Below, one piece after another: positions 6,283 to 32,455 of a stretch of 64,000 bases of DNA. How positions within the stretch are numbered: the first letter of the stretch is position 1; every line of letters starts with the position of its first letter. The stretch is taken from the IMG/VR virus record IMGVR_UViG_2687453603_000006; one strand, given 5' to 3'. The translations under genes were made by a program, and so were the position numbers. A model generated the notes under the pieces. That model made no database searches, was not told the DNA's origin, and saw nothing but the letters and a program-made list of their open reading frames with translations. The stretch comes from an uncultured virus (IMG/VR IMGVR_UViG_2687453603_000006) (taxonomy: Duplodnaviria; Heunggongvirae; Uroviricota; Caudoviricetes).

Positions 6283-9200
6283 TTAAACTGCACAACTTGT
6301 ACATTCAGCGATACTGATAAGTTTGTTTCTTGTGTAATAGAGTGATTTAAGTCCTCTATCATGTGCATATGCATATAATCTTGCTAGTTTGTTTGTTTCA
6401 ATCTCACTGTTAACAAATAAGATTGTTGATACACCTTGATCTATCCACTTCTGAGCTACTGCCGCTACATTGATGATATGTTCTTGAGGAATATCAAATG
6501 CAGTTGGTGAATAGAACCACATTGTTTCTGGTGATAAGTAAGGCATTGGATAATAAGTTTCTGAGTTACCATATTTACGTTTCTCTACAACATCTACAAC
6601 TGGTGTTAATGCTGATGAACAGTTTGTGATGTAACTTATTGATTGTGTCCTTTATGTTCAGTTAAGGTCGTTAATCTTAACCCGTCAATTTTTGACAGCT
6701 TATATTTTCATATAAGAGCAGACTATATCACAACTTACTTTGAAGTAAGCCATCTCCCGCTTCCACTCACTTGAGTGTACTTCCCGCAACGGAATAGTCG
6801 TTGAACTCTCCTTTTAAGTATTTCATACACTTAAAAGGTTTAGCTGCGTATTACCCAATCTTTAAGATTATTACACTTTGGTACTTAAAGCTCTAAGGGT
6901 TTCTTCGCAATTCAAGAGATTTATCAATAATATTTATTTATTACCGCCCTAATCAATAAGGTGCAATGGACAATCTGTATGAGTTATATAAACCATTCTT
7001 ATCAACTTCTCTAGCTAAACGTTGCCAGTCTTCTTTAGTAGGAATGTAAATACCTTTAAAGATTTCTTTAATTTTTGGAGTAATTGGTTCTACATTCTTA
7101 GTTACACGATTGTTTTTATAGAAGTATTCTCCAAACTCTTTATCATCTTTAGCTTTATAATCTGTTTGATCAAAACCATAGAATTTGTCATTTCTTTCAA
7201 CTGCAATCTTCATTGACTCATCTAATGAATAGTAGTCCATCATCATGCAGTAAACATTAAGTAAATCAAGTGACTCTTCTGAACCATATCTAATTTTGTT
7301 TTTAGCACACATACTATGGAATGACATTACACCTAAACCAACTGCTCTATTGTTTTTATTTGCTTTATGAACTGTTGGTAAGTGTTCGATACGTGAATTG
7401 TTAGCTACAAACGTTAAAGCTCTCATTCCAGTACGAATTGACTCTTCAATTTCTTTCTCTTCGATTGATTTAACCATATTAAGAGAAGCTAAGTTGCAGA
7501 TAATATCTTGACCTAATTCATCTTGTTCGTTGTAATCTTTAATATCTGAAACATGCATGTATTGGAAGATCTCAGTACAATTTCCTGTCACAATTCCATT
7601 GAAGATTAATGAGTGATAATCTTCTTGTGTGGTATCATAAACATCTTCTTTACCAATATATTTAATTTCAGTAATTTCGGCAGTAAAATCATGTTTCGGT
7701 TTTCTACTATTTGGTCGCAATGTTAAGTTAAAAATCATTGCTTTATGTATATCTTTAGGTTTCAAAGCTACTTCTTTCATAAACAAATCTCTTGAGCTTC
7801 TGTCTTGAATGCTAATTTTATATGTATTTTGAACTTTGTACTCTTTCATGCCGCCATTACCATCTGGTAATAAGCTTATCTCTCTCTCACTTTGATATAT
7901 TGATGAATACACACCGAGATTTAACAGTTGCATTTGAATATCTCTTGCTAATTCTTCACTGATTGTTGTCAATTCGATGCTCATTGCTTTATATTTTTCA
8001 TTTGTATTTACGCAAGCATCCATTTGATATAAGCCAGATAAATAAGCAGTTATTGTATTTTTTGTAGCATTTTTTAATAAGTTTGGAAATCGCAATTTAG
8101 TCTCTCTGTTAAATCCAAATCTAGATAATATTTTGTATAGCTCAACACTGCTAATTGTTAATTTTTGTAGTTCTTTATTTTCAACAAATTTAGGATGTAA
8201 GTTTGCACTATGATGTAAAAACTCATTTTTATTTCTATATTTATCTATAATATAAGCTACTAATTCTTCAATAGTTTCTTTAAGATATTGCTTCTCGTGA
8301 TATAGATAAATTTTAACTGAACCGTCTCTTCCAAATGTCCCATCTCCAGCGATAAGCCCCATCAAGAATGCTAATTTTGGATCATGAAAATCTCCATAAC
8401 TTCCATTACCAGATTGAACTAATAGCTTATCTCCTACCTCTAATTGATTTAACTGAACTTTTTCAATTGAGTCGTTTATTTTTCTATAATATTTGTGCCA
8501 TTCGGTAGATTTAATTTTAAACCCTTGTTTAGTAGTAATTTCATAAATTTCAGCTTGTTTAGCTGTAAGTTGCATTGGAATAGCATTTACGATATCAGTA
8601 CCTTTATTGTTAATATCATAATTCTTAGTTCTATTATCAATTACTACTTTCAAATCTTCTTGACTTTCATACAAGTCTTTGGCTTTCACATAACCTTTTT
8701 CAGTTAATAACTCAGTGTCTCCAGTAACACATAAGTTAGACATTTTGATTTCTCCAAGCTCATTTAAAGCATGGTTTTTGTTTGCGTTATCTTTATACAT
8801 GATATAAGGATAACCAGATTGTAATTGAATTTGAGCGATCAGATTTAACATTTCTCTGGCATTAATTTTGTGTTTGATAACATTCTCATTCTCAACGAAC
8901 TTGTCATACCAATCATTGATATTAATATCATCTAAGATTACATCTTTACCGAACTCTTCTTGAATTGAGTATGGTTCAAACATATATAAGTCTTTGTCTT
9001 CCTTTGCTAAATCAAAGAATAATGAAGGAACAATTAAACCGATTGAAAGTGTAGCTAAACGTGTATCTTCATCTGCATTAACTTTCTTAGTGTTTAATAA
9101 CTCAATTACGTCTGAGTGGAAAATGTTTAAGTAAGCAGCTCCAGCTCCAGCACGTTGTCCTAATTGATCAGCATAACTAACTTCACCTTCAATTAATTTA

Positions 9201-9862
9201 GCAACTGGTACAATACCTTTTCCTACATTCTTAACACCTTTTAATGTAGCACCACGACCTCTTAATCGTGTTAGGTTAACTGCTACACCACCAGCAATCT
9301 TACTAGCTTGTGATACTTGACTTCTAATGAAGTTGATAGAGTTTAATGTGTCATCCATTGTGAATAAGTAACAAGAAGCTAATTCTCCACGATGTTTACG
9401 ACCAGCATTTAAGTATGTTGGAGTTGCTGTTTGTACTGTTTGAAGTGTATGTGCTTTAATGTATCTCTTAGCTAAGTCAACATCTCCACCAGCTAAATAT
9501 AGAGAAACGATTACGTTATGTTGTTCAAAGTCTTCAAGCCATTGTGACTTATCTCTAGTTTTTAATGCGTATGTATCATAGAATTTGCTTGCTGCCATGA
9601 AGCTTTGGAATTCAAAGCCGAATGAATAAGCATAGTCTAAAAGTTCTAATAATGTTTCTTCACTATAATCTTTAAATACATCAATGTAGTAATCTTCTTC
9701 TACTAAGTAACGTAATCTTGCAATCTGATTTGAGAATTGTTTTGTTTTACTCTTAATGTGTTCTAAATATAACTCAATTGCTTCTTTGTCTTTCGATAAG
9801 CTAAGTTGCCCTAACTCATCTCTTCTCATAATTTCATTGTTTTTTTCGATCCATTTACTCAA
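6283..9862 (-). CDS. nrdE: Class Ib ribonucleotide reductase alpha subunit; exons 9862-6959 and 6648-6283; contains intein
   Basis: TPTYLNAG, SNL-C-TEI around intein; splicing restores IAP|TQSISY; C-terminal CTSCAV; mature protein about 705 aa. Confidence 0.95.
6649..6958 (-). ncRNA. Group I self-splicing intron (310 nt, no ORF) in nrdE
   Basis: Exon ends CCU, P1 pairing with UAGGG; P AAUUGCGAAGAA, Q AAUACGCAGC, R GUUCAACGACUA, S GAUAUAGUCU; terminal G; removal restores frame. Confidence 0.92.
7580..8731 (-). mobile_element. Intein with LAGLIDADG homing endonuclease in NrdE (384 aa)
   Basis: Starts CVTGDT, ends VYD...IVTGN followed by Cys+1; LMGLIAGDG and YLSGLYQMDA motifs. Confidence 0.95.
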
Positions 9863-12295: not shown

Positions 12296-12898
12296 TTATA
12301 TTTTATTTCTTATTTTTGAGTAAACTTTTGCTAATACAAAACATGTAAGTAATAAACAAATATTAGCAACTTCTGTAATAATAATATGTATAGAAACACC
12401 TGTTAAACTAAAGATAGTTACTAGCAATGATAAACCTATTGCAAAGAATAAGTACAATAACGGGTTAGCTCCTTCACTTGTTTTCTTCCTAATAAAGTGA
12501 ATGATTTGATCAATGTAGGCTAACACAATTGAAACTGTTGCCACTGTTTGACTTACTTCTAATGATAGATGGCTAAAGATTACAAGTGCTAATAGTATGT
12601 ATAGTAATGAGAATAGGATCGCAATTGGTTTTTCCATTCTCTTAAAATTGAGACAAATTACAATAATAAGTGCTACACCAGCATTAATAAACTGTCCTAA
12701 ATAGATATACCATTCAGCATTACCAGTTCGCAGTACATTTAATAAGCTAAACAAAGTTGAAAAGCTTACTAAGTACCAAAACATAGATGATATTCCTGTA
12801 ATATTTTTGGAATAAAATATTGATTTTAATTGATTATAATACGCAGTCACAAATATCAAAACTACTAGTAAATTAAGGGTTAAAAGTAAAGCTGCCAT
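12296..12898 (-). CDS. PQ-loop/SemiSWEET-like membrane protein
   Basis: About 7 hydrophobic helices; repeats AYYNQLKSIFYSKNITGIS and AYIDQIIHFIRKKTSEGAN. Confidence 0.7.
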   Translation of the reverse strand: MAALLLTLNLLVVLIFVTAYYNQLKSIFYSKNITGISSMFWYLVSFSTLFSLLNVLRTGNAEWYIYLGQFINAGVALIIVICLNFKRMEKPIAILFSLLYILLALVIFSHLSLEVSQTVATVSIVLAYIDQIIHFIRKKTSEGANPLLYLFFAIGLSLLVTIFSLTGVSIHIIITEVANICLLLTCFVLAKVYSKIRNKI

Positions 12899-13128
12899 TA
12901 TTGTCCATGCTCCTCTAACGTTTGTTTCGCTACTTTGTTACTTAATAGCAACGTAGTTAAGACACTATATCCAATTATTGATTGATAAATTACTTCTTTT
13001 TGAGAGATAGCAGTCTCTACTAAATTTGTTCTTATCAACATAAAGATTTCAAAGAAACCAAATGTTAAAGTAAAGAATATAGCTCCAAAGAATATTGAAC
13101 CTATGATTGTTAAACAAAGTCTTTTCAA
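12898..13128 (-). CDS. Small membrane protein
   Basis: Two hydrophobic segments. Confidence 0.6.
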   Translation of the reverse strand: MKRLCLTIIGSIFFGAIFFTLTFGFFEIFMLIRTNLVETAISQKEVIYQSIIGYSVLTTLLLSNKVAKQTLEEHGQ

Positions 13129-13141
13129 AATTAATTCTCTC

Positions 13142-13324
13142 CTATCTATATAAAATTGTTCCGTTATAACCTGTAAATACTTTTGCGTTCTCTTGAATAT
13201 GATTGTACATAACTTCGAATGCTGGGTTTGGTACTAGTTGAATAACTTTATTGTTGTTGGTTTGTACTGCTGTCATGTGGCTATTTTTCTTGTATTTTAA
13301 TCTTACTAATTGTTCTTTATCCAT
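13142..13324 (-). CDS. Hypothetical protein
   Basis: 60 aa ORF in operon. Confidence 0.55.
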   Translation of the reverse strand: MDKEQLVRLKYKKNSHMTAVQTNNNKVIQLVPNPAFEVMYNHIQENAKVFTGYNGTILYR

Positions 13325-13326
13325 TG

Positions 13327-13695
13327 CTAATTTCCTTTCAAGAATTTCTTAATAAACACATCTATTTGATTGGTTCTTCTTCGTTTATCTTCTTGAATAT
13401 GATCCATTTCATTATTACGCTCTTCTAATTGCTTTTTGATTTCATCAAGATAATATGTATTAAAGTTGATATTCTTCTTCATTAATTTAGATACAATACC
13501 ATTTGTCATAACAATACTTACTGGCAACTCACATTTGGTTGTGAAATCTAAAGTAACTTTACTTTTATATTCATTAATATGTACTCGTGATAAATTCCAT
13601 TTCTCATTGATAGGATAATCATTTTTGTATTCTGTCATTAATTTTTCTACTGCTTCATAAAATAGTTCCAAATTCTTCATTTGTCTGCCTCTCAT
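13327..13695 (-). CDS. Hypothetical protein
   Basis: ORF in operon; start probably MKNLELF. Confidence 0.6.
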   Translation of the reverse strand: MRGRQMKNLELFYEAVEKLMTEYKNDYPINEKWNLSRVHINEYKSKVTLDFTTKCELPVSIVMTNGIVSKLMKKNINFNTYYLDEIKKQLEERNNEMDHIQEDKRRRTNQIDVFIKKFLKGN

Positions 13696-13712
13696 TATTA
13701 TATTTTATTTCT

Positions 13713-14711
13713 TTACCAATTAAATGCTTTTTTCAACGATAAGAACACTGTTTTAAGATGTAACTGATTGATCACTCCACCTACAACATCATAAGCTGTA
13801 CTAGGTTTGAAGTTACATGCCTCGACATGTTTATATAATTCATCTGGCATTTCTTGTAATCTCCAATATTCTCTAGGAGAATAGAACCTTAATACACCAT
13901 CATTTATTGTTCCTAAAGTCTTACCACGCATGATTGTTTGACAAGCTTTAACCTGTACTCGTCCTCTTCTAGCTTTAGAAGTAACATAAGCTAAGTCAAT
14001 TCCGTCTCCATTATTTGCGTATAAATATCCTTTCTTAGTACCATTTTTAATTTTATAATCGTTCTCATCTTTACCAAGTATAAGATGACTATGTATATGT
14101 TCGTTTGCGATATCTGGTTGATCATTATTTTCTAAGTATGTTTCTAAATGTTTAGGTTCCCTTGTTAAATCAAGAAACTCAAATTTACCATTGTCTATAT
14201 CTTTTCTAATAGATATTGAAAATAAACGTTTTCTCTTTTGAGCTGAACCTAATTCATGTGCATTTAGAACTTTATAATATGTATTGTAATTTAAGCTATC
14301 AAGCTCATCCATATAATTTTGGAAGTTAGGCATGTTTTTTCTACTTATTGCGTCTGGAACATTTTCCCAAACTATCCACTTAGGCTTACATTCTTCCATT
14401 ATCCTGACTGCTTCCCACATCAGAGCTGATCGAGTATCTGAACCTTTAAGTCCTCCACCTTGCTTACCAGCCCTTGTGAAGCTTTGACATGGACTACCGA
14501 ATACTAGTAAGTCTACATCTAAATCTTTTGCTGAGACGTTTCTAACATCTCCAAGATTTTCACTTTCTTTTTTATTATGTAATTTACAAAATAGTTGAGT
14601 AGCAGTTTTTCTTGTTTCACTAAAACCAACAATTTCATGCTCAATTCCTAAAGTGTTTAGGGATATTGAGAAGCTGCCTACTCCACTAAAAAGTTCTAAT
14701 ACTTTAATCAA
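13713..14711 (-). CDS. DNA cytosine-C5 methyltransferase-family protein (variant motif X)
   Basis: LELFSGVG (I), GSPCQSF (IV), WENV (VI), QKRKR (VIII), REYWRLQ (IX); motif X reads VVGGVI instead of GN(S/A)(I/V). Confidence 0.9.
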   Translation of the reverse strand: MIKVLELFSGVGSFSISLNTLGIEHEIVGFSETRKTATQLFCKLHNKKESENLGDVRNVSAKDLDVDLLVFGSPCQSFTRAGKQGGGLKGSDTRSALMWEAVRIMEECKPKWIVWENVPDAISRKNMPNFQNYMDELDSLNYNTYYKVLNAHELGSAQKRKRLFSISIRKDIDNGKFEFLDLTREPKHLETYLENNDQPDIANEHIHSHLILGKDENDYKIKNGTKKGYLYANNGDGIDLAYVTSKARRGRVQVKACQTIMRGKTLGTINDGVLRFYSPREYWRLQEMPDELYKHVEACNFKPSTAYDVVGGVINQLHLKTVFLSLKKAFNW

Positions 14712-14725
14712 GTATGTTATCCCTC

Positions 14726-15421
14726 CTACTTAACTGCAATTATTCCTACAAAGTTGTTCCATTTAAACCAAGTATCTATATCCTTAAAACCAGCTTCTTC
14801 AAGCATTCTTTTATTTTGTTCTAAGGTTAAAGGCTTTAATACTCCTCTAATTGATTGAGATTTCTTGATCACTTCTTCATAAGTCAAACCATTCTCAAGT
14901 TTAAAATCATGATATATTTGGTTCATGATTTCATGTGATTGTACAAATTCTCCATTTACTTTCTCAACAAGGATAAATGCTCCACCTTTATTCAAACCTT
15001 GATAAACATTTTTTAGTATCTTTTCTCTATCCTCAATATTTATAAATTGCAAAGTTAAAATAGAAGTAATATATGAAGCATTTGTGAATTTAAAATCTTG
15101 CACGTCTTCAGATAATATTTTGATATTGTCATTATCAGCGTCATTCATAGCTACTTGGTTCATATAAATAGAATTATCAATTCCAATATAATTAGCATTA
15201 CGTTTTAGTATATTGCTCATGCCTTTTAATAAATTACCGGTTGACGATCCTATATCATAGACATTTGTGTCATCCTCAACGAAGAAACCACCGATAATTT
15301 TAACAATCTTATGTATCTCTTTATAGAATGGTACAGATTTTTCTACGTGTTCATTAAATTCATTAGTCGTTTGCTCTGATTTAAATGTCCACTGAAAAGG
15401 GTTATAATTCATCTTCCTCAT
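14726..15421 (-). CDS. CmoA-like (carboxy-SAM synthase family) SAM-binding protein
   Basis: WTF..., SVPFY, VYDIGSSTG, IDNS, TLQF, YQGLNKGG..VEK, HDFKLENG, AGF...WF..NF match E. coli CmoA along its full length. Confidence 0.85.
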   Translation of the reverse strand: MRKMNYNPFQWTFKSEQTTNEFNEHVEKSVPFYKEIHKIVKIIGGFFVEDDTNVYDIGSSTGNLLKGMSNILKRNANYIGIDNSIYMNQVAMNDADNDNIKILSEDVQDFKFTNASYITSILTLQFINIEDREKILKNVYQGLNKGGAFILVEKVNGEFVQSHEIMNQIYHDFKLENGLTYEEVIKKSQSIRGVLKPLTLEQNKRMLEEAGFKDIDTWFKWNNFVGIIAVK

Positions 15422-15593
15422 CTCCGAACCAAGCTTGTAATATTTCTAAGTTTTCTGTGTCAATGTACAAATTTAAATCATGATATGTATAGTGTCCTAC
15501 AACATTTCTATCTGGAAAACCTAAGTCTTCTCCATTCCAGTCTGCCCGCCAGTGTAGCCTACTCCAGTCAAAGTCCTCTGGGTTATCAAACAA
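15402..15593 (-). CDS. Small acidic hypothetical protein
   Basis: 63 aa, overlaps both neighbours. Confidence 0.6.
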   Translation of the reverse strand: MFDNPEDFDWSRLHWRADWNGEDLGFPDRNVVGHYTYHDLNLYIDTENLEILQAWFGDEEDEL

Positions 15594-16197
15594 TTAGGCC
15601 ACTTCCAAACAAATCTAATCTATGTAAAACTTGATCCCAAGTAATAAAACCTTCACCATTAGTAGCTTCCAATACCATTCCATATACGAACTGGTTAGTT
15701 GAAAATTCAGCACGGTCTGGATCAGTATAAGGTTTCCCGTGTCCTTGTCTAATGTCCGAACAGTAACATAGAACAGGTTTATTTAATATTTTTTCTTGCT
15801 TGGAGATTTCGTCTTGAATTAAATCATAAGCTTCTGTTTTGTCTCCATATTCATCATGTTTTATTTCTTCAGATAAGACACTCAATCTATCAATTGTTTT
15901 TTGAGCTTGTTTCTTCATTCCAATAATAATTCCAAGCTCAGAAATTGTTCCTAAACCTTCATTTAAAACATCAAGAACATAGATATCTGATTTTTCCATT
16001 GCGGTAAAATCATTCTTTAAAATTCTCTCGGCCAAACCTTCTTGAACTGCATTAGACTTATCATTAATAGATTTGTCTTGGTGAGGGCTATAAGGTTTTA
16101 CTCCCTCAATTGCTTCAACTTGGTTATGTTGTTTTTCTCTATAATCAACCATTGCTTCATTAAGAATATGGCCAGCTAGATAAATTACTTTCTCCAT
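15586..16197 (-). CDS. Nucleoside 2-deoxyribosyltransferase/nucleotide hydrolase family
   Basis: IYLAG, YSPH, D..AMEKSD, GTISELG, NQFVYG; start adjusted to MEKVIY after RBS. Confidence 0.82.
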   Translation of the reverse strand: MEKVIYLAGHILNEAMVDYREKQHNQVEAIEGVKPYSPHQDKSINDKSNAVQEGLAERILKNDFTAMEKSDIYVLDVLNEGLGTISELGIIIGMKKQAQKTIDRLSVLSEEIKHDEYGDKTEAYDLIQDEISKQEKILNKPVLCYCSDIRQGHGKPYTDPDRAEFSTNQFVYGMVLEATNGEGFITWDQVLHRLDLFGSGLIV

Positions 16198-16390
16198 AAG
16201 TTCTCTCCTTTTTAATAGCTTTTTGATTGTTTCCACCTAGTATGTAACCAATACTACTTTCATATATGTATCTGATAAGTTCCTTTCTATCAGCGAATAA
16301 ATCTCCATTAAGTATGTATATCTTTTGATCCTGATAAAGTGGTGTTCCATAATAACTAATGTCGTAAATTTCTTGCGTTAAGATTTCCAT
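16160..16390 (-). CDS. Hypothetical protein
   Basis: ORF in operon. Confidence 0.55.
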   Translation of the reverse strand: MEILTQEIYDISYYGTPLYQDQKIYILNGDLFADRKELIRYIYESSIGYILGGNNQKAIKKERTYGESNLSSWPYS

Positions 16391-16641
16391 TAGTCTTCAT
16401 CACTTTCACTCTCTAAGAATTCAATTTGTTCTTTAAGTTCTTTATTCTCCATTCGAAGATATCCATAATCTACTGATAAAGCATGATACTTGTCTTGATA
16501 TGTACCAACATCTTCTTTTTTAAGCCATTCAATATCTTCAATCAGTTCGCTAATAGTGTCTATCTTGCCAATAGCTTGCATAATTTTTAATTGATCAATA
16601 ATATCTTGTAAATTTAATGGTCTATTGTATTTAACCTTCAT
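16390..16641 (-). CDS. Hypothetical protein
   Basis: ORF with RBS. Confidence 0.6.
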   Translation of the reverse strand: MKVKYNRPLNLQDIIDQLKIMQAIGKIDTISELIEDIEWLKKEDVGTYQDKYHALSVDYGYLRMENKELKEQIEFLESESDED

Positions 16642-16663
16642 ATTAATTACCCCTTTTTATATA

Positions 16664-16978
16664 TTATTTTTTCTTGAAATCGAGCTGCTCAAAAGTAATA
16701 TCTCCAGTTGAACTTTCTATTAAAGCGTATCTTAGGAAGTCATGAATACAAATAGTGTAAACATTTTTCTCTACATCTGGATATTGTACAACTTCTTCAA
16801 TATCTATATCATCTACTGTGATATTATCTAACTTCTTAATTGTTTCAGCGAGAAGTTTTTTGTTTGATTGGTTCCAGTAGTGCTCTGGCAATCTCGCTAA
16901 AAGCCTTCCCATTTGATTTGTTTCAACAACAAATTCTTTAATACCTTGCTTATTTAGGTTCGGTAACATCTTTGTCAT
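16664..16978 (-). CDS. Hypothetical protein
   Basis: ORF in operon. Confidence 0.6.
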   Translation of the reverse strand: MTKMLPNLNKQGIKEFVVETNQMGRLLARLPEHYWNQSNKKLLAETIKKLDNITVDDIDIEEVVQYPDVEKNVYTICIHDFLRYALIESSTGDITFEQLDFKKK

Positions 16979-17237
16979 TCTCTCCTTTTAATTCTTTAAT
17001 TTGCTCATCTAAGTCTGCAATCTCTTGTGTCATGTCAGTAATGATTTGCTCTGATGAAATTCTTGAAGAGATTAATTCAAAGATAAGTTTTGAAGTAGTT
17101 TCTTTATCCCACTCTCTTTTAGTTAATGAGGTATTATTTTCTGTATAAACAATGTCTTCGATGTTATTGTCAGCCTTTGAGATATAAATTTTAAAGCTGA
17201 TCAATTCAACTACATAACTATCTTTTTCTTTATTCAA
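16950..17237 (-). CDS. Hypothetical protein
   Basis: ORF in operon. Confidence 0.6.
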   Translation of the reverse strand: MNKEKDSYVVELISFKIYISKADNNIEDIVYTENNTSLTKREWDKETTSKLIFELISSRISSEQIITDMTQEIADLDEQIKELKGENDKDVTEPK

Positions 17238-17496
17238 TTACTTTCTCCTCCAAGCGTTTAATCTTAATGTTATTTGTCTTTAAGATTTCGTTAATTCCTT
17301 CTAAGTCAAAGTCATCTAGAACAGGCTCTCTAGTAATGACAATATCTTTTGTATGTTCAGTTCCATCAATATATGTATTAATAATCATATGTGTATATTC
17401 GTTTTCATCTTTCGTGAATTTGAAATCTACATCATGTGTTTTGTTTGCTTTCGCTATGTATAATTGGTTATATGCTACTTTATATAATTTACTCAT
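17230..17496 (-). CDS. Hypothetical protein
   Basis: Start at MSKLY after GGAGAG RBS. Confidence 0.6.
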   Translation of the reverse strand: MSKLYKVAYNQLYIAKANKTHDVDFKFTKDENEYTHMIINTYIDGTEHTKDIVITREPVLDDFDLEGINEILKTNNIKIKRLEEKVIE

Positions 17497-17506
17497 TTTC
17501 TCTCTC

Positions 17507-17680
17507 CTAAATTTTTTGAAGCATTTCATCCGACTTAATGCCAATGAATTCTAGTGCTTCTTCCATTCCTTCTCCAGATTGTAGTGCTTCTTCAGCTTTG
17601 TCATAAAACGTTGTTAACATTGTTGCGATTTGTTCACGATGCTTTAAATATTTTTCATATTTCATTTGTTCGTAACTCAT
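17507..17680 (-). CDS. Small hypothetical protein (57 aa, MSYEQMKY...), not in ORF track
   Basis: Translated by hand; AAGGAG RBS upstream. Confidence 0.6.
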   Translation of the reverse strand: MSYEQMKYEKYLKHREQIATMLTTFYDKAEEALQSGEGMEEALEFIGIKSDEMLQKI

Positions 17681-17795
17681 ATCTGTCTCCTTATTTAATT
17701 ATTTAGGGAGCTTATCAAATGAAGCCAACGTTACTAACAAACTCCCTATTTTTATATATTATTTCTTGTTGAAGAGAAAATTAAATTTTCTCCTA

Positions 17796-18188
17796 TTATC
17801 TCTCACAAGTGATTACTTGTTTGTCCTCAGTTGTAAGATACATTGTTTTGTGATCATCACTAAACTTCACATTGAATGTTGCTTCTGGCTCGTCTTCCAT
17901 ATTCACAACCAAGAAGTATTCATCTGTTTTACCATATCTTTCGATTTCGTATGTACCATACTTAATATCAGTGCCATCTGTATTTTCACTATCAACTTCT
18001 CCGTCTTTATCGAAAGTAATATATTCTTCAGTGTCAGTTTCCCAAGAATTCACTATGTATTTACTTTCATCACTAAAAGGTTTAATCACTGCAATTAATA
18101 TGATAATTAAAAGCGATATTGCAATAACTATTGAAGATACTGTAATCAGTTTCTTTTTGTTATTAGTTGTTGTATTCATGCTCTTCAC
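17796..18188 (-). CDS. Membrane-anchored extracellular protein (moron-like)
   Basis: N-terminal TM helix, beta-rich acidic domain, TATAAT upstream. Confidence 0.65.
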   Translation of the reverse strand: MKSMNTTTNNKKKLITVSSIVIAISLLIIILIAVIKPFSDESKYIVNSWETDTEEYITFDKDGEVDSENTDGTDIKYGTYEIERYGKTDEYFLVVNMEDEPEATFNVKFSDDHKTMYLTTEDKQVITCER

Positions 18189-20519: not shown

Positions 20520-23500
20520 TTATAAATAATCTCTCTCTAATTTATATCTAAGTACACCATCTTTAGAAATGCTTTCGATCAGCTTAGTTGAAGATGAAGT
20601 CGATGTGTCTTTATACTTCTTAGATACAAATTGTCCTCCACGTCTGAAGCCACTAAATATTAATTTATTCCCCTTCTTAAACCATGACTCTTCTACTACG
20701 CTTCCATTGAGCTTGCTAGTCTTGTCATAGTAAGAGAAGTTTCCATGATATTTAATTGTTACAACTGAGCCATCAGTAGCAAGAATAGTTACTGACTTCT
20801 TAGGTGCGTTTTTTGCAATAACTGTACCAGCAATATTAACAATTTCATACTTAGGCATTTCTCTACCCTTAAATTTAAATACATCTGTTACTACTGGATC
20901 AACTGGTAATTCTTTAAAATCAGTAATATCATAAGTCTCTTTGTTTACATTGTATAACTCATGTTTATGGTAATAGAACGATAATGTCTCCATTTCCCAA
21001 GATGAATAATTACCTAATGCATGTTTTTTCCAAGCTTCGTTTAATACATATCTATTTGCTAATTCAATAGGCTTATCTGTCTTCAACCATTCTTTTAAAT
21101 CTTTAGTTTTCTTATCGAAGATTTTTTTGAATTCTTTTTCGTCTACTTCATAATGGCTTCCTACTACATTAACAATAGCTTCATTACCAATTAAACGATC
21201 ATAAAGTTCAGTATCTTCTACTTTAAAGATTTTGTGTTTAGTTTTACTCTTACCTGTTTGAACTTTTCTTAACACTTTATTCTTGATGTTTTCTCTTAAT
21301 AAGACTAATTCATATTCAGGTCGCTCACTAAGAATATCTGCTTCAAGTAACAATTTAATATTTGCTAAAGTTAAGTTAGTCTTCAAGTCTGTTATGTATT
21401 TAACCACGTCCATCATAATCTTTTTACGTTCACCAAATTCATCTAACATACCAGATTTAACAATAGAAATTAAATGTTTGTTAGTAATTAATTTGGTATC
21501 GTATAACTTAGTTAACACATCATCTAGTGAATGATATGGACGATTTGCAATGATATGATCCACTATTTCATTATTGATATTCTTAACTGGTTTTAAACCA
21601 TAGACAATAGCATTATGTTCCACATCTGGACTAAATTCTAATGTAGATTTATTAATAGAAGGCAACTTGACTGTTACGCCATTCTCTTTCATCTTACCAA
21701 TACCATTAGCAATCTTTTCGTAATCAATATCTTTACTATCAGTTGATATTGAGTCACTATCTACATTTAAGCATGCAGTTTGCCAGTAAATTCGTGGGAA
21801 CCTTCTATTCAATTCTAAGTTTTGAATACCAATAACTGAATAAGCAGTTGTATGTAATAAACTGAAACTATATGAGAATTGCATTGCGAACTGGACATTC
21901 CATACATAATCTAAGAATACTTCTCTTGCTCCACACTCTTTACCCTTAGAATAAAACAGAGATTTTATTTGGTCTAAAGCCGAACCTTTAGGCTTAGCAA
22001 TGGCCTTTCTGAGCTTATTTTGCTCTAAAATAGTGAAGTTAGATATCCTATTGTCCGCAGATAGCCCCATTGAGTTTTCTTGAGTAATGTTTAAGCCTTT
22101 ATCATGTAATAAATGCTCTTCCATAATCTTAATTTCTTCTTCATTTAAACCAAATTCACGCATTTCTTTGTACCATTCGTTAATATCATTCTTATGACGA
22201 ATGTATTTATCAATAGGTTGTTCTTCTCCATCAGACTGTAATCTCATTAACGAGTTTGCTGCACAGAATTGTTCAAATGTTTCTGGTTGTACCCTCTTCA
22301 AAGTTGTTTGTCCAATCTCAGTTTGGAATTGGAATAAATCGTTAATTTCTCCAGTTGAGGCTAACTCAAAGTATTCATTACTCTCTAAATCTAAATTCTT
22401 AGGGTGCAGCAAATCACTAAAGTTTTCTCTAAGTGATTTTGTATTATCAATTAGTCCATCTTTAGATAATAATTCTAATGTTGCTCTAATTCTATCTAAG
22501 TTCTCTACACTTAATAAATCGAATTTTACTCCGCCCATGTATTCTGAGTCAGATAAATTATATTGAGTTACATGAACATCTCCACCAGAAGCAGTCATGA
22601 TCGCATTATTCTTATAAGCTTCATCATTAAAGATAATTACACCACCAGCGTGTATACCTCTTCTAGTTACTAAACCTTCTAGTTTCATAGCAGTTTCAAG
22701 TAATCTAGGATATTTCTCCATTTCATTTTTGAATTGAGTATCTGGTTTTCTATCTTTATCTAGGTTTCCATAGAGTGTATCTTTAATACTCCATTGTTGA
22801 CCACGTTCAACTTTAATAAATGAACCTAAATATTGTGCTTCTGTATCTGGGATATTTAAACCACGAGCTGCCATTTTAATTGCAGATTTAGCACCTTCAG
22901 TTCCATATGTACATACATTTAATACTCTATCTTCACCATAATGTTTCTTTAATGCACTGATAATACGTTGACGCTTAGAACCTTCACAGTCTATATCTAT
23001 ATCCATTTATACCGTTACTTTCGTAATACTTTAACACTGTTTTAAACAGTCGGTCTAGACTATATCTCCATTAATTAACTTAATGTAAATGCACTTCCAG
23101 TAGTGACAAAATCTACTGTACTCCCAATAGGGATAGTCGTTGCACCTTCCACATATAAGTGGCTTGGCACAGTATTCTCAGCTATCTATTTTAAAATAGA
23201 CCTTAGAGTCTCTTAGTCAGTGGCTTCGTCCTTTTTAAATGTCATTATCTCCTTGTAAGGCTTGAATGACGGTCTTATTCAACTGATACTGTTAGCACTT
23301 ATAATTAAATAAGCACACCGTTTTGTCATACGTTCACATTTAATACCCAATCATTTAGGTAATTCTGGTCGCTCTTTAGTTAAATGTCTCCAATGAGGTA
23401 AATTATTATATTTTAAAGGGTTGATTTGAGTAATGCCTAAAAGGTAATTTAATAAGAAACCAGCACCAGAGCCCCGTCCGGAACCGACTAAACTATTACC

Positions 23501-24787
23501 ACCACACTCATCATCTTGCCACATAATATTCACAATCTCTCTACAAGTTAAATAATATGAACTCATAGTTTGGTTTAATTTATGACTAATACCAATGATT
23601 TCACTTAATTCATCATCAATACGTTTTAATATTTGATGGAATTCCTCTCTACCAATACCTTTATAATGTAACTCTTTAAAGTAACCTTTTTCGATTAAGT
23701 AAAGTAAGTATTGATCATCTATCTTATCTGAATTTGCTAAGTATTTAATATGTTCATATGTATCATAAGCTTTACTAAATATGTGAGATAATTCAAATTC
23801 TGGAATTGTAGACTTAGGAATAATCGAAGTATGATTAATGTCATATACTTCTACCTTGTCATAAATCTTCTCAGTATTCTTAATAGCTTCCTCAACGATT
23901 TCTTCAGATAGATAAGACATTTGTTTCTTCATTTCATCAGTACTATGCATATAACAATAGTAATAAAATTCATCAACTTCTCTGTCTCCTTCTTTTGAGT
24001 TTAAGAATACTCTATGAACATCTCTGTCTTCTGGTCTTGCATAATGAGTGTCATTAGCTACAATACATTTCAAACCAGTTTCATTAGCTAAGTTAACTAA
24101 ATGCTTATTACAATAAATTTGTACTTCACTTTCGGCTGGTTGTAGTTCTACATAGAAATCATCTTTACCAAATGTCTCAATGCACCAATGTAATTCTTTT
24201 CTGGCTGCATTATAACAGTTAGCTATTTCTTCAGATGAAGAACCATTTTCCTCAGCCGCTTTCATTTGCTGTAATTGAATATTAACGCTTGAACCAATAC
24301 AAGCTGTCGTAGCCATGATCGTTCCTTTATATTCTTCACTTGTAGCCACACTTCTTAAAAATTCTTTAGTAGTTGGTGTTCTCTCCATCAAACCTGTAAA
24401 GAAACTATTCTTCCAAGCTTCACTAGATAACTTGCTTAATGCCTCAAAACCTTTTCTATTCTTAGCCATTAAGATGAAATGAGGGAATTTAGTTACTCCT
24501 CCGCCGACATAGTTGTCTCTAACCTCTTCTAAGCTATCAACTAAATATATTTCGTTACCCAAGACTAATTTAAAACTTTCATCTACTATATTTTGTTCCT
24601 TTAGAGATTTTAATTCTCGTATCATTTGTACTGCACTTGATAAACTCTCATGTTCAGTAATAGCTAAACCATTATAACCAAGTTTACTTGCTGTCGTTAA
24701 TAATTCTTTTGGTGATGTAATAGCGTCAATAATTCTAAAGTTAGAAAACATTGTATGGTTATGTAAAGCCATTCTTTTCTTACACAC
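20520..24787 (-). CDS. dnaE: DNA polymerase III alpha subunit (DnaE-type); exons 24787-23357 and 23003-20520
   Basis: PHP domain (HNHT, AITEH, NDTHY), GSGRGS, spliced ELP|DIDID, HAGG, KFDLL; spliced product 1304 aa. Confidence 0.93.
23004..23356 (-). ncRNA. Group I self-splicing intron (353 nt, no ORF) in dnaE
   Basis: Exon ends ACCU, P1 with AAAUGAUUGGGUA; R GUGCAACGACUA, S AGAUAUAGUCUAG; terminal G; removal restores PDIDID. Confidence 0.9.
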
Positions 24788-26363: not shown

Positions 26364-27687
26364 GATAAAGTCCGTATAATTGTGTAAAAGTAAAAAGGCC
26401 ATATAACAGTCCTTTTACGGTACAATGTTTTTAACGACAAAAACATACCCAGGAGGACTTTTACATGACCCAAGTACATTTTACACTGAAAAGCGAAGAG
26501 ATTCAAAGCATTATTGAATATTCTGTAAAGGATGACGTTTCTAAAAATATTTTAACAACGGTATTTAATCAACTAATGGAAAATCAACGAACAGAATATA
26601 TTCAAGCAAAAGAATATGAACGAACAGAAAACCGACAAAGTCAACGAAATGGCTATTATGAGCGCAGCTTTACGACACGTGTAGGCACGCTAGAATTAAA
26701 AGTACCCAGAACACGTGATGGCCATTTTTCACCCACAGTGTTTGAACGTTATCAACGAAACGAAAAAGCCCTCATGGCTTCAATGTTGGAAATGTATGTA
26801 TCAGGCGTTTCAACTCGTAAAGTATCAAAAATTGTGGAAGAACTTTGTGGTAAATCCGTCTCTAAGTCCTTCGTTTCTAGCTTAACAGAACAGCTAGAAC
26901 CTATGGTTAACGAGTGGCAGAATCGTTTATTATCAGAAAAAAATTATCCTTACTTAATGACCGATGTACTCTATATAAAAGTACGAGAAGAAAATCGAGT
27001 ACTCTCAAAAAGCTGTCATATAGCGATTGGAATAACCAAAGATGGCGACCGTGAAATTATCGGCTTCATGATTCAAAGTGGCGAAAGCGAAGAGACCTGG
27101 ACAACATTTTTTGAATACCTAAAAGAACGCGGTTTACAAGGTACGGAACTCGTTATTTCTGATGCGCACAAAGGATTAGTCTCTGCCATTAGAAAATCCT
27201 TCACCAACGTAAGTTGGCAAAGATGCCAAGTTCACTTCCTAAGAAATATCTTTACCACCATTCCTAAAAAAAATTCAAAATCTTTCAGAGAAGCTGTTAA
27301 AGGAATTTTTAAGTTCACAGATATTAACTTAGCGCGTGAGGCTAAAAATCGATTGATTCATGATTATATCGATCAACCAAAATATTCAAAAGCTTGCGCA
27401 TCATTGGATGATGGATTCGAAGACGCCTTTCAATATACCGTACAAGGAAATTCCCACAATCGACTAAAGAGTACCAATCTAATTGAACGACTGAATCAAG
27501 AAGTACGCAGAAGAGAAAAGATTATTCGCATCTTCCCCAATCAAACATCAGCCAATCGCTTAATTGGAGCCGTTCTTATGGACCTACATGATGAATGGAT
27601 TTATTCTTCAAGAAAATACATCAATTTTGATAAGTAGAAATGGTAAAAACATTGTATAGCATTTTACACAGGAGTCTGGACTTGACT
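26364..27687 (+). mobile_element. IS256 (left copy)
   Basis: GATAAAGTCCG... to ...GGACTTGACT ends, 1324 bp. Confidence 0.97.
26465..27637 (+). CDS. tnp: IS256 transposase
   Basis: MTQVHFTLKSEE..., 390 aa. Confidence 0.97.
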   Translation: MTQVHFTLKSEEIQSIIEYSVKDDVSKNILTTVFNQLMENQRTEYIQAKEYERTENRQSQRNGYYERSFTTRVGTLELKVPRTRDGHFSPTVFERYQRNEKALMASMLEMYVSGVSTRKVSKIVEELCGKSVSKSFVSSLTEQLEPMVNEWQNRLLSEKNYPYLMTDVLYIKVREENRVLSKSCHIAIGITKDGDREIIGFMIQSGESEETWTTFFEYLKERGLQGTELVISDAHKGLVSAIRKSFTNVSWQRCQVHFLRNIFTTIPKKNSKSFREAVKGIFKFTDINLAREAKNRLIHDYIDQPKYSKACASLDDGFEDAFQYTVQGNSHNRLKSTNLIERLNQEVRRREKIIRIFPNQTSANRLIGAVLMDLHDEWIYSSRKYINFDK

Positions 27688-27773
27688 CACTTCTCACTTC
27701 CTTTATTATTTTTCATTTTTTTAAACTATTTAATACTAATGTCTTTTATAATAGCTTTTCATATATTATATAA

Positions 27774-29213
<1,440 letters not shown>

Positions 29214-29612
29214 TTATTTATCACCTTTTTCATAATCATATACATATACTATTTCATCTTTATAATCATTTTTACCACCTAATTTTTCATATACATGGCA
29301 AGCTCTAGGATTACCTTTATCAGTTATTAAAAACATTTCAGAACAACCAATCTCTTTAGAATATTCCTTAATAAAAGATAATAATTTTGAACCATAACCT
29401 TTGTCTTGATAGTTAGGTAACATTCCTATTGAGTGTAAATAAAACATTGTTTTTCCATCAGGTCTTAAAAGTGTATAGCAATATGCAAATCCTATAATTT
29501 TATTATTTTCTTTAGCTATAAACCCAAATGAACTGGTATCATTAAGAAATCCTTTTAAATTATCAATATCAAAAACCATATTATCATCAATTAAAACTTC
29601 TTCCATAAACTC
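29214..29612 (-). CDS. GNAT acetyltransferase orf of Tn4001 (5' end abuts IS256)
   Basis: YQDKGYGSKLL acetyl-CoA motif; standard position upstream of aacA-aphD. Confidence 0.85.
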   Translation of the reverse strand, partial: EFMEEVLIDDNMVFDIDNLKGFLNDTSSFGFIAKENNKIIGFAYCYTLLRPDGKTMFYLHSIGMLPNYQDKGYGSKLLSFIKEYSKEIGCSEMFLITDKGNPRACHVYEKLGGKNDYKDEIVYVYDYEKGDK

Positions 29613-30936
29613 AGTCAAGTCCAGACTCCTGTGTAAAATGCTATACAATGTTTTTACCATTTCTACTTATCAAAATTGATGTATTTTCTTGAAGAATAAA
29701 TCCATTCATCATGTAGGTCCATAAGAACGGCTCCAATTAAGCGATTGGCTGATGTTTGATTGGGGAAGATGCGAATAATCTTTTCTCTTCTGCGTACTTC
29801 TTGATTCAGTCGTTCAATTAGATTGGTACTCTTTAGTCGATTGTGGGAATTTCCTTGTACGGTATATTGAAAGGCGTCTTCGAATCCATCATCCAATGAT
29901 GCGCAAGCTTTTGAATATTTTGGTTGATCGATATAATCATGAATCAATCGATTTTTAGCCTCACGCGCTAAGTTAATATCTGTGAACTTAAAAATTCCTT
30001 TAACAGCTTCTCTGAAAGATTTTGAATTTTTTTTAGGAATGGTGGTAAAGATATTTCTTAGGAAGTGAACTTGGCATCTTTGCCAACTTACGTTGGTGAA
30101 GGATTTTCTAATGGCAGAGACTAATCCTTTGTGCGCATCAGAAATAACGAGTTCCGTACCTTGTAAACCGCGTTCTTTTAGGTATTCAAAAAATGTTGTC
30201 CAGGTCTCTTCGCTTTCGCCACTTTGAATCATGAAGCCGATAATTTCACGGTCGCCATCTTTGGTTATTCCAATCGCTATATGACAGCTTTTTGAGAGTA
30301 CTCGATTTTCTTCTCGTACTTTTATATAGAGTACATCGGTCATTAAGTAAGGATAATTTTTTTCTGATAATAAACGATTCTGCCACTCGTTAACCATAGG
30401 TTCTAGCTGTTCTGTTAAGCTAGAAACGAAGGACTTAGAGACGGATTTACCACAAAGTTCTTCCACAATTTTTGATACTTTACGAGTTGAAACGCCTGAT
30501 ACATACATTTCCAACATTGAAGCCATGAGGGCTTTTTCGTTTCGTTGATAACGTTCAAACACTGTGGGTGAAAAATGGCCATCACGTGTTCTGGGTACTT
30601 TTAATTCTAGCGTGCCTACACGTGTCGTAAAGCTGCGCTCATAATAGCCATTTCGTTGACTTTGTCGGTTTTCTGTTCGTTCATATTCTTTTGCTTGAAT
30701 ATATTCTGTTCGTTGATTTTCCATTAGTTGATTAAATACCGTTGTTAAAATATTTTTAGAAACGTCATCCTTTACAGAATATTCAATAATGCTTTGAATC
30801 TCTTCGCTTTTCAGTGTAAAATGTACTTGGGTCATGTAAAAGTCCTCCTGGGTATGTTTTTGTCGTTAAAAACATTGTACCGTAAAAGGACTGTTATATG
30901 GCCTTTTTACTTTTACACAATTATACGGACTTTATC
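29613..30936 (-). mobile_element. IS256 (right copy)
   Basis: Inverted copy of left IS256, 1324 bp. Confidence 0.97.
29663..30835 (-). CDS. tnp: IS256 transposase
   Basis: Same 390 aa protein as left copy. Confidence 0.97.
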   Translation of the reverse strand: MTQVHFTLKSEEIQSIIEYSVKDDVSKNILTTVFNQLMENQRTEYIQAKEYERTENRQSQRNGYYERSFTTRVGTLELKVPRTRDGHFSPTVFERYQRNEKALMASMLEMYVSGVSTRKVSKIVEELCGKSVSKSFVSSLTEQLEPMVNEWQNRLLSEKNYPYLMTDVLYIKVREENRVLSKSCHIAIGITKDGDREIIGFMIQSGESEETWTTFFEYLKERGLQGTELVISDAHKGLVSAIRKSFTNVSWQRCQVHFLRNIFTTIPKKNSKSFREAVKGIFKFTDINLAREAKNRLIHDYIDQPKYSKACASLDDGFEDAFQYTVQGNSHNRLKSTNLIERLNQEVRRREKIIRIFPNQTSANRLIGAVLMDLHDEWIYSSRKYINFDK

Positions 30937-31159
30937 CAAAATCAGCCTCTGTTTCAGCAGGATATTTTTCAAATGCAGTAAAAACAGTATTGGACCCAAA
31001 CAGCACCGCATCCGAATGAATTCCCCCGGCAACCTGGTAGTAAACTTCCGGATTATCAAAGCCTTTAATGCGGCCATCAAGGCTAATTTGTGTGTGCATA
31101 ATTATCTTTGGTTTCATATTTTTCAATCCTCCTTTTTGATAGTAGAATATCATAATACA

Positions 31160-31177
31160 CTGACAGCTGTATGTCAG
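31160..31177. promoter_or_regulatory. Palindrome CTGACA-N6-TGTCAG, probable WYL-regulator site
   Basis: Inverted repeat directly upstream of a -10-like hexamer of the ribD-like gene. Confidence 0.55.
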
Positions 31178-31227
31178 CAGGGGATATGAAACCTTACAAA
31201 AAATACATAACAGACCAATCGCTTTCT

Positions 31228-32180
31228 CTAAATCAAGTTTAGGCAGTGATTCGTAATTTGTGCCAGGTGTTTACGGGTTATGCATTTTAATTCATCAGGT
31301 TGGACTATTTCAATGCCTGATCCATATTCAATCAGCTGCTTGCTCAATATCTCAAAGGAATCTGTCTGGAATTCGATTTCCATTTTACTTCCCAAATCGG
31401 TTTCTTCAAGGAAGCCGAGAGAATACCTGTTCTTGATAGAATTGTATGTCTCCCCTTTTTCAGCTCTAAGAATTACATTATATAGTTTTTTATATGAAAG
31501 CATTTGTTTTAATATTTGTTCCAAAGAGCCATCATGGCTTTGACAGAGCTCTTCTTCTATGCAAATGCTTTTAATCCGATCCACACGAAAATTCCTATAT
31601 TCATTTCTTAGCCTGCAAAACCGATTAAGTACCAGTTCTGTTCATAAAACCCCAGTGATATAGGCTCTATCATTCTGCTTTCCGGTTCTTGCCCTCCTGA
31701 TGCAGGATATTGAATTGATATTACCCTTTTATTGCAGATTGCAGTCTGAATTGCTGCAATAACGTTATCCGCCAATGTATTTTTCTGTCCAGATGTGCTG
31801 TACACGTTAATACTGTTCTCCAACTCCTGTGCATAGTTTTTTTCACCATGCTTCAAAATAGATTTGATTTTATACATAGCTGAATCAAAATCCTTTATAA
31901 ATGATTCATCTCCATGGCAATTTAAAAATTTCCCTGCTGTAATCAATGCACCCACTTCCGCCGCTGTAAACATTACCGGCGGAAGTAGGAAGCCCTCTAC
32001 AAGAAAATATCCTTTTCCGGCCTCAGATCCAATTGGTATTCCGGCTTCTTCAAGTGTCCGGATATCTCTGTAAACTGTCCTTAAGCTTATATTAAATCGC
32101 TGTGCAATTTCTTTGGCAGGAATTATTTTTTTTGATTGCAGCTGAATAAGAATAGAGGTTACTCTGTTAATCCTGTTCAA
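31228..32180 (-). pseudogene. YafY/PafB-like HTH-WYL regulator, frameshifted
   Basis: HTH SLRTVYRDI, WYL motif; other frame continues CRLRNEYRNFRVDRI; 1-nt loss in run at 31617-31620. Confidence 0.85.
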
Positions 32181-32401
32181 ATTTTATTCCTCCTCTGTGA
32201 CTTCCATAAAAAGTATATCCTATGCGTTCTTAAGCTAGCTGCTGTTAGTGCTTCTCATTGCACCCTGGTTATAAAAGCCATACTCACAAACCTCTTCACC
32301 AAAACTCTTTACATCTCTAATATAGAACTCTATCTAGCGAACTTTTAGAAAAGATATAAAACATCAGAGTATGGACAGTTGCGGATGTACTTCAGAAAAG
32401 A

Positions 32402-32446
32402 TTAGATGTCTAAAAAGCTTGTAGTTAAAGCTTTTTAGACATCTAA
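32402..32446 (-). terminator. Inverted repeat downstream of aphA-3
   Basis: TTAGATGTCTAAAAAGCTT / AAGCTTTTTAGACATCTAA. Confidence 0.7.
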
Positions 32447-32455
32447 ATCTAGGTA

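Follow-up and report, generated by a model that had tools for sequence, protein, structure and literature searches.

The 64,000-nucleotide stretch of viral DNA analyzed here (IMG/VR record IMGVR_UViG_2687453603_000006; hereafter, the window) carries a gene for a CmoA-like protein that is directly followed by a gene for a DNA cytosine-C5 methyltransferase (C5-MTase). We propose that the two genes form a module of a carboxy-S-adenosylmethionine (carboxy-SAM or Cx-SAM) synthase and a DNA cytosine carboxymethyltransferase of an independent, arginine-less lineage, with 5-carboxymethylcytosine (5cxmC) as the end product in this phage. Based on sequence comparisons, we put the probability of this proposal at about 0.65. 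Phage systems of this kind, in which a CmoA is paired with a CmoX-like transferase, have already been published, and the new part here is the different enzyme lineage. A first-pass annotation of the window had suggested that the phage makes carboxy-SAM for a coupled C5-MTase that writes 5cxmC, and this suggestion is supported by the precedent of Synechococcus phage S-B43 (PMC12783734) and by our clade comparisons. The annotation had also stated, correctly, that pairs of cmoA and MTase genes were reported from phages (PMC12783734). It rightly placed the novelty in the lineage and in a glycine variant; the published census of such enzymes required an SPPC motif and Arg350, both absent here.

Positions 13000-16500 of the window are 98.2% identical to Staphylococcus phage SPbeta-like (KT429160) and to PhiSepi-HH3, both phages of S. 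epidermidis. The window is a temperate SPbeta-like prophage of Staphylococcus, and the complete genome of KT429160 served as a stand-in for whole-genome searches around it. All genes of the region lie on the minus strand. The CmoA-like gene (14726-15421) is a 231-amino-acid (aa) open reading frame (ORF), the true start of which is more likely the ATG at 15412, preceded by GGAG 9 nt upstream and giving a 228-aa product in agreement with the annotation of KT429160. The C5-MTase gene (13713-14711; 332-aa ORF with a TTG start) follows after a junction of 14 nt (14712-14725), and an AGGAGG ribosome-binding site overlaps the cmoA stop codon; we propose that the two genes are translationally coupled. 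Codon reading confirmed the initial description of the pair, namely a CmoA homolog that ends 14 nt before a C5-MTase with PCQ, ENV, and RxR motifs, GG in place of GN and ETRK in place of EIDK.

The closest published system is the CmoA-CmoX-CmoY system of phage S-B43 (Yang et al., Nat Commun, Dec 2025; structure 8YF3; PMC12783734). According to this report, CmoA makes Cx-SAM, CmoX, a homolog of C5-MTases, uses it to write 5cxmC at GC sites, and CmoY acts as a ligase that joins glycine to the carboxymethyl group. The enzyme SpCmoA is described as a fast, proven Cx-SAM synthase, SpCmoX accepts Cx-SAM only, and the crystal structure shows Arg350, in the column of Asn304 of M.HhaI, touching the carboxymethyl group (PMC12783734). 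The census in the same paper lists 5,615 CmoX candidates, for which the SPPC motif and Arg350 were required, and a term search of its main text returned no mention of Staphylococcus or SPbeta. The window resembles S-B43 in that a phage CmoA homolog of the same subtype adjoins a C5-MTase homolog that has lost the Asn of motif X, without CmoB. It differs from S-B43 in its Gram-positive Staphylococcus host and temperate SPbeta-like phage, in the lack of a ligase, and in an MTase from another lineage. Judged by the published definition of CmoX, this MTase has GSPCQ instead of SPPC and Gly312 instead of Arg350 and lies outside the CmoX clade; it shares with CmoX the linkage to a phage cmoA, seen in the 14-nt spacing, in all five loci of its clade sampled, and in a cultured phage (vB-SscS-F1, see below).

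The MTase scored well above the curated cut-offs of PF00145 (173.7 bits vs. 22) and TIGR00675 (167.2 bits vs. 100.65). Motifs I, IV (PC), VI (ENV), and VIII (RxR) of C5-MTases are all present, and the codons read F8-G10-G12, E32-T33-R34-K35, G72-S73-P74-C75-Q76, E116-N117-V118, R160/R162, and G311-G312. The exception is motif X, where Gly-Gly (G311-G312, 13776-13781, minus strand) replaces Gly-Asn, with G312 in the column of HhaI Asn304, MpeI Asn374, and SpCmoX Arg350. The best sequence match in the PDB was M.HhaI (E 1.5e-26), and SpCmoX (8YF3) was absent from the 20 PDB chains matching at E ≤ 1e-5. An AlphaFold2 model built from 21 clade sequences (predicted local distance difference test score, pLDDT, 91.9) was compared with known structures by Foldseek, which placed M.MpeI at the top (4dkj, template modeling (TM) score 0.79). 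M.HhaI reached a TM score of 0.77, and 8yf3 appeared at rank 24 with a TM score of 0.64 and 17% identity over the alignment. In a MAFFT pairwise alignment, SpCmoX and the MTase share 24% identity, with VGR (Arg350) set against VGG (G312).

We collected 464 homologs of the MTase at E ≤ 1e-20 and used the best 120 of these for column counts. Together with the query, the key column of motif X contains Gly in 37 sequences, Asn in 70 (AGNSI), a gap in 10, and Lys in 4. The 37 Gly sequences are the query and 36 homologs of at least 54% identity that share the motif YDV[VI]GG[VAML]IN.xH[LM]; the next relatives among these best 120 (42-48% identity) carry Asn. Nine of the ten gaps lie outside this group, the tenth being P0036, an incomplete member, and all four Lys sequences are cut at the C terminus. 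Most members derive from Logan assemblies; the named ones come from S. chromogenes, S. gallinarum, S. pseudoxylosus, and phage vB-SscS-F1. By alignment, the MTase is thus a member of a Staphylococcaceae-phage clade with an invariant Gly in the column of HhaI Asn304 and SpCmoX Arg350 (the Gly clade). One member, L170 294-1310 (= P0029), has SKC for SPC and Leu in the R34 column, and it may be decaying or divergent.

The Gly clade is also set apart by residues outside motif X. Thirteen positions are at least 90% fixed within it and rare elsewhere (S13, R34, F71, A121, T144, L154, R262, P289, D308, V309, G312, Q316, and H318), and they are located within or next to motifs I, II, IV, VI, and X or the T-L loop of the target recognition domain (TRD). 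R262 (codon 13926-13928, minus strand), in the loop CQT[IL][ML]R, is an invariant Arg specific to the clade (36/36 clade rows); the column holds T in 6/6 sister rows and T or C in 72 of 76 farther rows. Relatives, SpCmoX, and the Arg-type enzymes linked to CmoA have T, C, or A at this site (TLT[TCA]; TLTA in the Arg-type). R34 in motif II (codon 14610-14612, minus strand; E-T-R-K) is a clade-specific charge reversal relative to E-I-D-K, with R in 33/36 clade rows and D in 74/76 farther rows, and Q316 lies one helical turn past G312. When anchored on the T-L dipeptide, R262 would correspond to HhaI A253 and sit beside the equivalent of HhaI Tyr254, although the HMMER pairwise alignment with M.HhaI is offset at this loop. 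We infer that R262 is a candidate for a relocated contact to the carboxylate of the cofactor.

What a small residue does at this column is known from engineered enzymes. In M.HhaI, Gln82, Tyr254, and Asn304 crowd the transferable group, and N304A brings the largest single gain for extended cofactors (PMC3526304). M.HhaI is a SAM-dependent methylase of a restriction-modification system, and its variants (N304A, Q82A/Y254S/N304A) were engineered for synthetic propargylic cofactors; the Gly described here occurs naturally in the column at which N304A opens the pocket and favors larger groups over methyl, is invariant in its clade, and is linked to a Cx-SAM synthase homolog. The engineered carboxymethyltransferases M.MpeI N374K and M.MedI N377K likewise have the use of carboxy-SAM decided by this one column of motif X (PMC13288465, PMC12015181). 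They carry an introduced Lys, as opposed to the Gly of the clade, in which any cationic contact must lie elsewhere.

From these comparisons, we propose the following mechanism. The CmoA-like enzyme, by homology to SpCmoA and EcCmoA, would convert SAM and prephenate from the host shikimate pathway to carboxy-SAM. The C5-transferase would then use ordinary covalent catalysis by Cys75 and Glu116 to transfer the carboxymethyl group from carboxy-SAM onto C5 of cytosines within the sequence that it recognizes, yielding 5cxmC. Its motif X Gly would open the pocket as HhaI N304A does, where the published CmoX uses the motif X Arg on the carboxylate, and the carboxylate might be held by residues of the clade's own, speculatively R262, Q316, R34, or H318. 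The likely benefit is that a mark other than 5-methylcytosine (5mC) would shield phage DNA from host restriction, and the conversion of SAM by CmoA would also reduce competition from SAM.

A pocket without a cationic residue in the key column could also accept both cofactors, in which case the DNA would carry a mixture of 5mC and 5cxmC in a ratio set by the extent to which CmoA converts SAM. Published variants lend this some plausibility. In HhaI Y254S/N304A, binding of S-adenosylmethionine is 4-fold weaker and that of S-adenosylhomocysteine 60-fold weaker (cofactor binding measured in the C81S background), and methyl transfer is 27-fold slower but not abolished (PMC3526304). Additionally, wild-type M.MedI weakly carboxymethylates, and its N377K variant still methylates (PMC12015181). 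The natural SpCmoX, however, takes Cx-SAM only (PMC12783734), and a pocket that is tuned, not merely loosened, is suggested by R262, Q316, and H318, which are invariant in the clade and specific to it. We therefore consider a dual-cofactor enzyme unlikely.

Comparative evidence for a carboxymethyltransferase comes from the linkage between the type of MTase and cmoA. MTase alignments were used as queries to gather 238 loci, of which 78 were viral, 80 came from genomes, and 80 from metagenomes. In these MTase-based searches, cmoA was found in the flank of all five Gly-clade loci (L010, L011, and L013, from one Staphylococcus lineage, as well as L012 and L170) and of none of the 233 non-clade loci. 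The key column was readable in 36 of the 158 viral and genome loci, with 30 Asn, 3 Gly, 2 misaligned, and a single gap, which belongs to the second MTase of L012. Scanning genome contigs with the MTase alignment yielded no Gly-clade member (best match 39% identity), and the metagenome scan yielded one, L170. Starting from the opposite side, we took the best 80 viral cmoA loci and counted MTase ORFs within 6 kb of cmoA. Fifty-six of these loci contain a total of 57 C5-MTase ORFs, the key column of which reads Arg in 52, Gly in 4, is not alignable in 1, and is Asn in none; 24/80 loci have no MTase, and 24/80 have a CmoY-like ORF. The conservation of the gene pair and the co-variation of motif X, which had been put forward as a check of the first-pass annotation, are thus both borne out (cmoA in 5/5 against 0/233 loci; Asn in 0/57), and this comparison ties the Gly clade to carboxy-SAM at the level of predicted function.

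Two further observations on linkage carry little information. Six pairs of MTase and CmoA clusters or members share the size of their longest contig (P0006/P0128, P0027/P0130, P0028/P0143, P0002/P0142, P0245-P0246/P0136, and P0243/P0129), which is the only hint of linkage for these. An apparent joint loss of cmoA and the MTase in Staphylococcus phage SPbeta-like 2 (MT955612, 36% of the query covered) was discarded as evidence on co-loss, since what is missing there corresponds to three scaffold gaps of 100 N each.

The linkage bears directly on an alternative in which the MTase is an ordinary SAM-dependent orphan methylase that makes 5mC and tolerates the Gly, while CmoA drains host SAM against SAM-dependent defenses or feeds an RNA modification. 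All catalytic motifs are canonical, as such a methylase would require; HhaI N304A variants keep methyltransferase activity (PMC3526304), and the closest relatives of the Gly clade are GN-type methylases with a near-identical TRD. SAM depletion by CmoA has moreover been posed as an open question by the authors of the S-B43 study (PMC12783734). However, an ordinary methylase leaves unexplained why cmoA accompanies 5/5 Gly-clade loci and 0/233 others, why Asn is found in 0/57 MTases near cmoA, and why 13 concerted clade-specific changes surround the cofactor pocket. The variant that invokes RNA modification meets the additional difficulty that no CmoB-like RNA enzyme (TIGR00452) was matched in KT429160, F1, or the provirus G002 described below; the earlier claim that the window has no cmoB accordingly held in KT429160, its 98%-identical complete relative. 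The 5mC methylase also fails to account for the gene content of phage F1, and on balance it is improbable.

Phage vB-SscS-F1 (F1) of Mammaliicoccus sciuri has a complete genome of 90,130 bp, in which the module (39,041-41,559) consists of cmoA (51% identity to the gene described here), a cmoY homolog (35% identity to SpCmoY, E 7e-40, PF00733), and then a Gly-type MTase (62.5% identity). A single PF00145 match was found in the whole F1 genome, so that the Gly-type enzyme is the sole C5-MTase of this phage and a ligase that requires 5cxmC has no other supplier there. The whole genome of KT429160 likewise has one PF00145 match. No CmoY homolog was found in KT429160 or in G001 by a search in which F1 (self-match) and G002 (E 2.6e-35) were positive, and Asn_synthase had no match among the window ORFs scanned. 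Because the window and KT429160 lack the CmoY ligase, 5cxmC would be the final mark here; the relatives F1 and L012 probably extend it to an amide.

Other relatives arrange the same components differently. In L170, cmoA is followed after 24 nt by the Gly-type MTase. L012 has, in order, cmoA, cmoY, an Arg-type MTase (GFPCFA; ERAGRTV), and the Gly-type MTase. The IMG/VR provirus G002 (= L254; complete, 136,534 bp, SPbeta-sized) contains a cmoY homolog together with cmoA (49% identity), and its single C5-MTase, with GFPCQG and an unusual, Arg-containing motif X (RRPSRSV), represents a third type of CmoA-linked MTase. F1, L012, and G002 thereby share with S-B43 the presence of a CmoY homolog.

A quick IQ-TREE phylogeny of 52 natural sequences (LG+C20, with support from the Shimodaira-Hasegawa-like approximate likelihood ratio test, SH-aLRT, only) recovered the Gly clade as monophyletic (SH-aLRT 100) and grouped it with GN-type sisters (98). 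This joint group falls among the GN-type methylases (99), at a distance from the canonical SPPC/Arg CmoX clade (98), and Arg-type enzymes appear at three places. We applied an approximately unbiased (AU) test under LG+G4 to 24 of the 52 rows, with the tree already in view and the group defined by genome context; it rejected a single clade of all CmoA-linked enzymes (P = 4.7e-10, at a cost of 120.7 log-likelihood units). The tree and this rejection point to several independent recruitments of MTases to cmoA, each with loss of the Asn, and suggest that the Gly-type MTase is an analog of CmoX that is not homologous to it in lineage.

Among the GN-type sisters is ORF138 of Psychrobacillus phage Perkons (47% identity). 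It shares with the Gly clade a nearly collinear TRD (RRGRVQ...QTL...) and a neighborhood by ribonucleotide reductase genes; it differs in its canonical EIDK, TLTC, and AGNSI. Its genome also differs, as no CmoA was found in the complete Perkons genome by a search that was positive for KT429160, F1, and G002. Three tandem C5-MTase genes lie by the ribonucleotide reductase genes in Perkons (L332, 4040-6993), of which the third alone is related to the Gly clade.

The CmoA-like protein matches E. coli CmoA (4GEK) over residues 10-231, that is, at full length (E 1.7e-33), and also matches phrog_4752 (1.5e-80). The fold and the cofactor contacts are shared with the E. coli CmoA/CmoB pathway to tRNA cmo5U: of the Cx-SAM contacts listed in PMC3663124, Y39, D62, G64, S66, D89, F137, and E164 (E. 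coli numbering) are kept. The phage protein differs from that pathway by the lack of CmoB, by a score below the TIGR00740 equivalog cut-off, and by the position of a cationic residue. In E. coli CmoA, Arg199 forms a salt bridge to the cofactor carboxylate (PMC3663124); the corresponding column holds Ser188 here, with Arg192 four residues on (window 14846-14860), so that the salt bridge is absent in its E. coli form. The form found in the validated SpCmoA, which has Glu in the R199 column and Arg at +4, is present. Across an alignment of 124 CmoA sequences, 120 have no Arg or Lys in the R199 column and Arg or Lys at +4, three (E. coli, Erwinia phage Y3, and an Alcaligenes phage) have Arg199 with Glu at +4, and one is cationic at both. 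The two states look mutually exclusive.

The Ser in this column had led to the caveat that the product of the enzyme could differ, and one may extend it to a CmoA-like enzyme that makes some other SAM derivative, from which the MTase would transfer another group. The sub-threshold TIGR00740 score could be read in the same direction. The caveat loses its force because SpCmoA, a proven Cx-SAM synthase, has Glu in that column and the same four-residue shift of the Arg, a layout common to 120/124 aligned relatives; the remaining Cx-SAM contacts are conserved, and cmoY homologs accompany this CmoA subclade. A different SAM derivative therefore appears very improbable to us, and we predict that the CmoA-like gene encodes a carboxy-SAM synthase of the type of SpCmoA.

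The closest relative of this cmoA in the phage collection, MT835562 (L006; 43% identity), was rejected as a context of phage DNA modification; its neighbors are bacterial and include no C5-MTase. Although filed as 'Bacteriophage sp.', MT835562.1 1-12678 looks bacterial, with two PEMT-family membrane methyltransferases, a TonB-dependent receptor, and two ABC exporters, as well as two saccharopine-dehydrogenase-like genes near the CmoA-like gene. This gene set may belong to a small-molecule or lipid pathway that uses carboxy-SAM.

Several points weigh against a carboxy-SAM synthase paired with an arginine-less carboxymethyltransferase. On the side of the synthase, the CmoA-like protein reached 157 bits on TIGR00740, for which the equivalog cut-off is 193.3 (the CmoA homologs of KT429160, F1, and G002 scored 153.8-165.9 bits). 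On the side of the transferase, SpCmoX R350N is reported as inactive with both cofactors (PMC12783734), and when N374 of M.MpeI was subjected to saturation mutagenesis, the use of CxSAM was best supported by a cationic side chain (PMC13288465), so that a bare Gly is not the obvious solution. As HhaI N304A variants still methylate, the Gly enzyme might use SAM or both cofactors. The candidate carboxylate contacts R34, R262, Q316, and H318 rest on a motif-anchored alignment. Independent contexts of the Gly clade are few, namely the Staphylococcus SPbeta-like lineage, F1, L012, and L170, and in L012, the presence of cmoA can be explained by the Arg-type MTase without the Gly enzyme. Finally, the staphylococcal CmoY homologs (L331 5183-5998; L012 2320-3120) have the PP-loop SGGNGS, where SpCmoY has SGGVDS and Erwinia phage Y3 SGGIDS, and these homologs may differ in ligase activity or in chemistry.

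A more far-reaching version of our proposal is that the Gly-type enzymes represent a second, mechanistically distinct class of natural carboxymethyltransferases, which arose independently from SAM-dependent methylases and combines a space-opening Gly with a contact outside motif X (R262, perhaps Q316, R34, or H318). Both routes taken by engineers, N374K and N304A, would then have been found by nature, and bare 5cxmC would be the terminal mark in staphylococcal SPbeta-like prophages, possibly also on the chromosome of the lysogen. We offer this version tentatively and consider it less probable than the module itself.

Two genes upstream of cmoA were considered as possible further parts of the module. 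A 63-aa acidic ORF (15402-15593, minus strand) overlaps both of its neighbors and has no family match. It is weakly similar (E 0.011, 29% over 52 aa) to a 60-aa ORF that immediately precedes cmoA in L012, and F1 has no annotated ORF at the equivalent position. Given the weak counterpart in L012, we left this ORF out; its membership in the module is doubtful. The nucleoside 2-deoxyribosyltransferase (NDT)-family gene (15586-16236, minus strand; 216 aa; PF05014 37.7 bits vs. cut-off 28.8; phrog_1817 1e-78) had been suggested to recycle modified nucleotides. Its homolog in F1 (60,191-60,808) is separated from the module by about 20 kb, and none was found in the complete provirus G002, so that the NDT gene is not a conserved part of the module and the suggested link finds no support.

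We found no terminator-like sites in 12800-17800, and a promoter scan returned 25 sites compared with 28.5 from shuffled sequence, i.e., no excess. Contigs from three of four RNA-library runs (three studies) cover the stretch, some of them spanning the cmoA-MTase junction; since such contigs may come from DNA and cannot prove a single transcript, we make no claim on expression. Pfam recognized no restriction enzyme among the 47 window ORFs scanned, which agrees, as a weak negative, with the initial statement that a cognate restriction enzyme is missing.

Elsewhere in the window, a drug-resistance island lies inside the prophage (26465-34605), and the GC content at 30-34 kb climbs to 0.37-0.40. 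Two identical Mutator-family (IS256-like) transposase ORFs (26465-27637, plus strand; 29663-30835, minus strand) enclose a bifunctional GNAT+APH ORF (27774-29213) and a GNAT ORF (29214-29660). Past this pair are an HTH-WYL regulator (31608-32180), another APH (32456-33250), and a streptomycin-adenylyltransferase-like ORF (34006-34605) that covers only positions 106-278 of the 279 in the profile. Among the replication genes, the large subunit of ribonucleotide reductase (6953-9862, 969 aa) has an intein with a LAGLIDADG domain. DNA polymerase III alpha (20520-24787) is split into two ORFs about 340 nt apart, one (23351-24787) with PHP and the start of the NTPase domain and the other (20520-23006) with the remainder; KT429160 is annotated likewise. 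Further, an MBL-fold ORF (49286-50023) gave a sub-threshold match to anti-Pycsar Apyc1 (32.1 bits vs. cut-off 50), and a DndB-like ORF (59983-61266; 25.8 bits vs. 29.1) is located beside MrpR-like and tyrosine recombinase genes.

If our proposal is true, the published census of 5,615 candidates would be incomplete, because a selection for SPPC and Arg350 would miss whole lineages, and the signature of 5cxmC would have to be widened to the loss of the motif X Asn in an MTase beside cmoA. The Gly clade would then provide a second structural solution to cofactor choice, which would be useful for the design of orthogonal DNA-labeling enzymes, since the TRD of the clade is near that of ordinary methylases and the cofactor pocket alone differs. 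The prediction is tractable, as vB-SscS-F1 is a cultured lytic relative and SPbeta-like prophages can be induced. Species of Staphylococcus live as commensals and opportunists on people and animals, and the traffic of phages and plasmids among these bacteria is shaped by both modification-dependent and classical restriction. Our proposal, if true, would place 5cxmC in the phages of this genus, including a prophage that also carries resistance genes.

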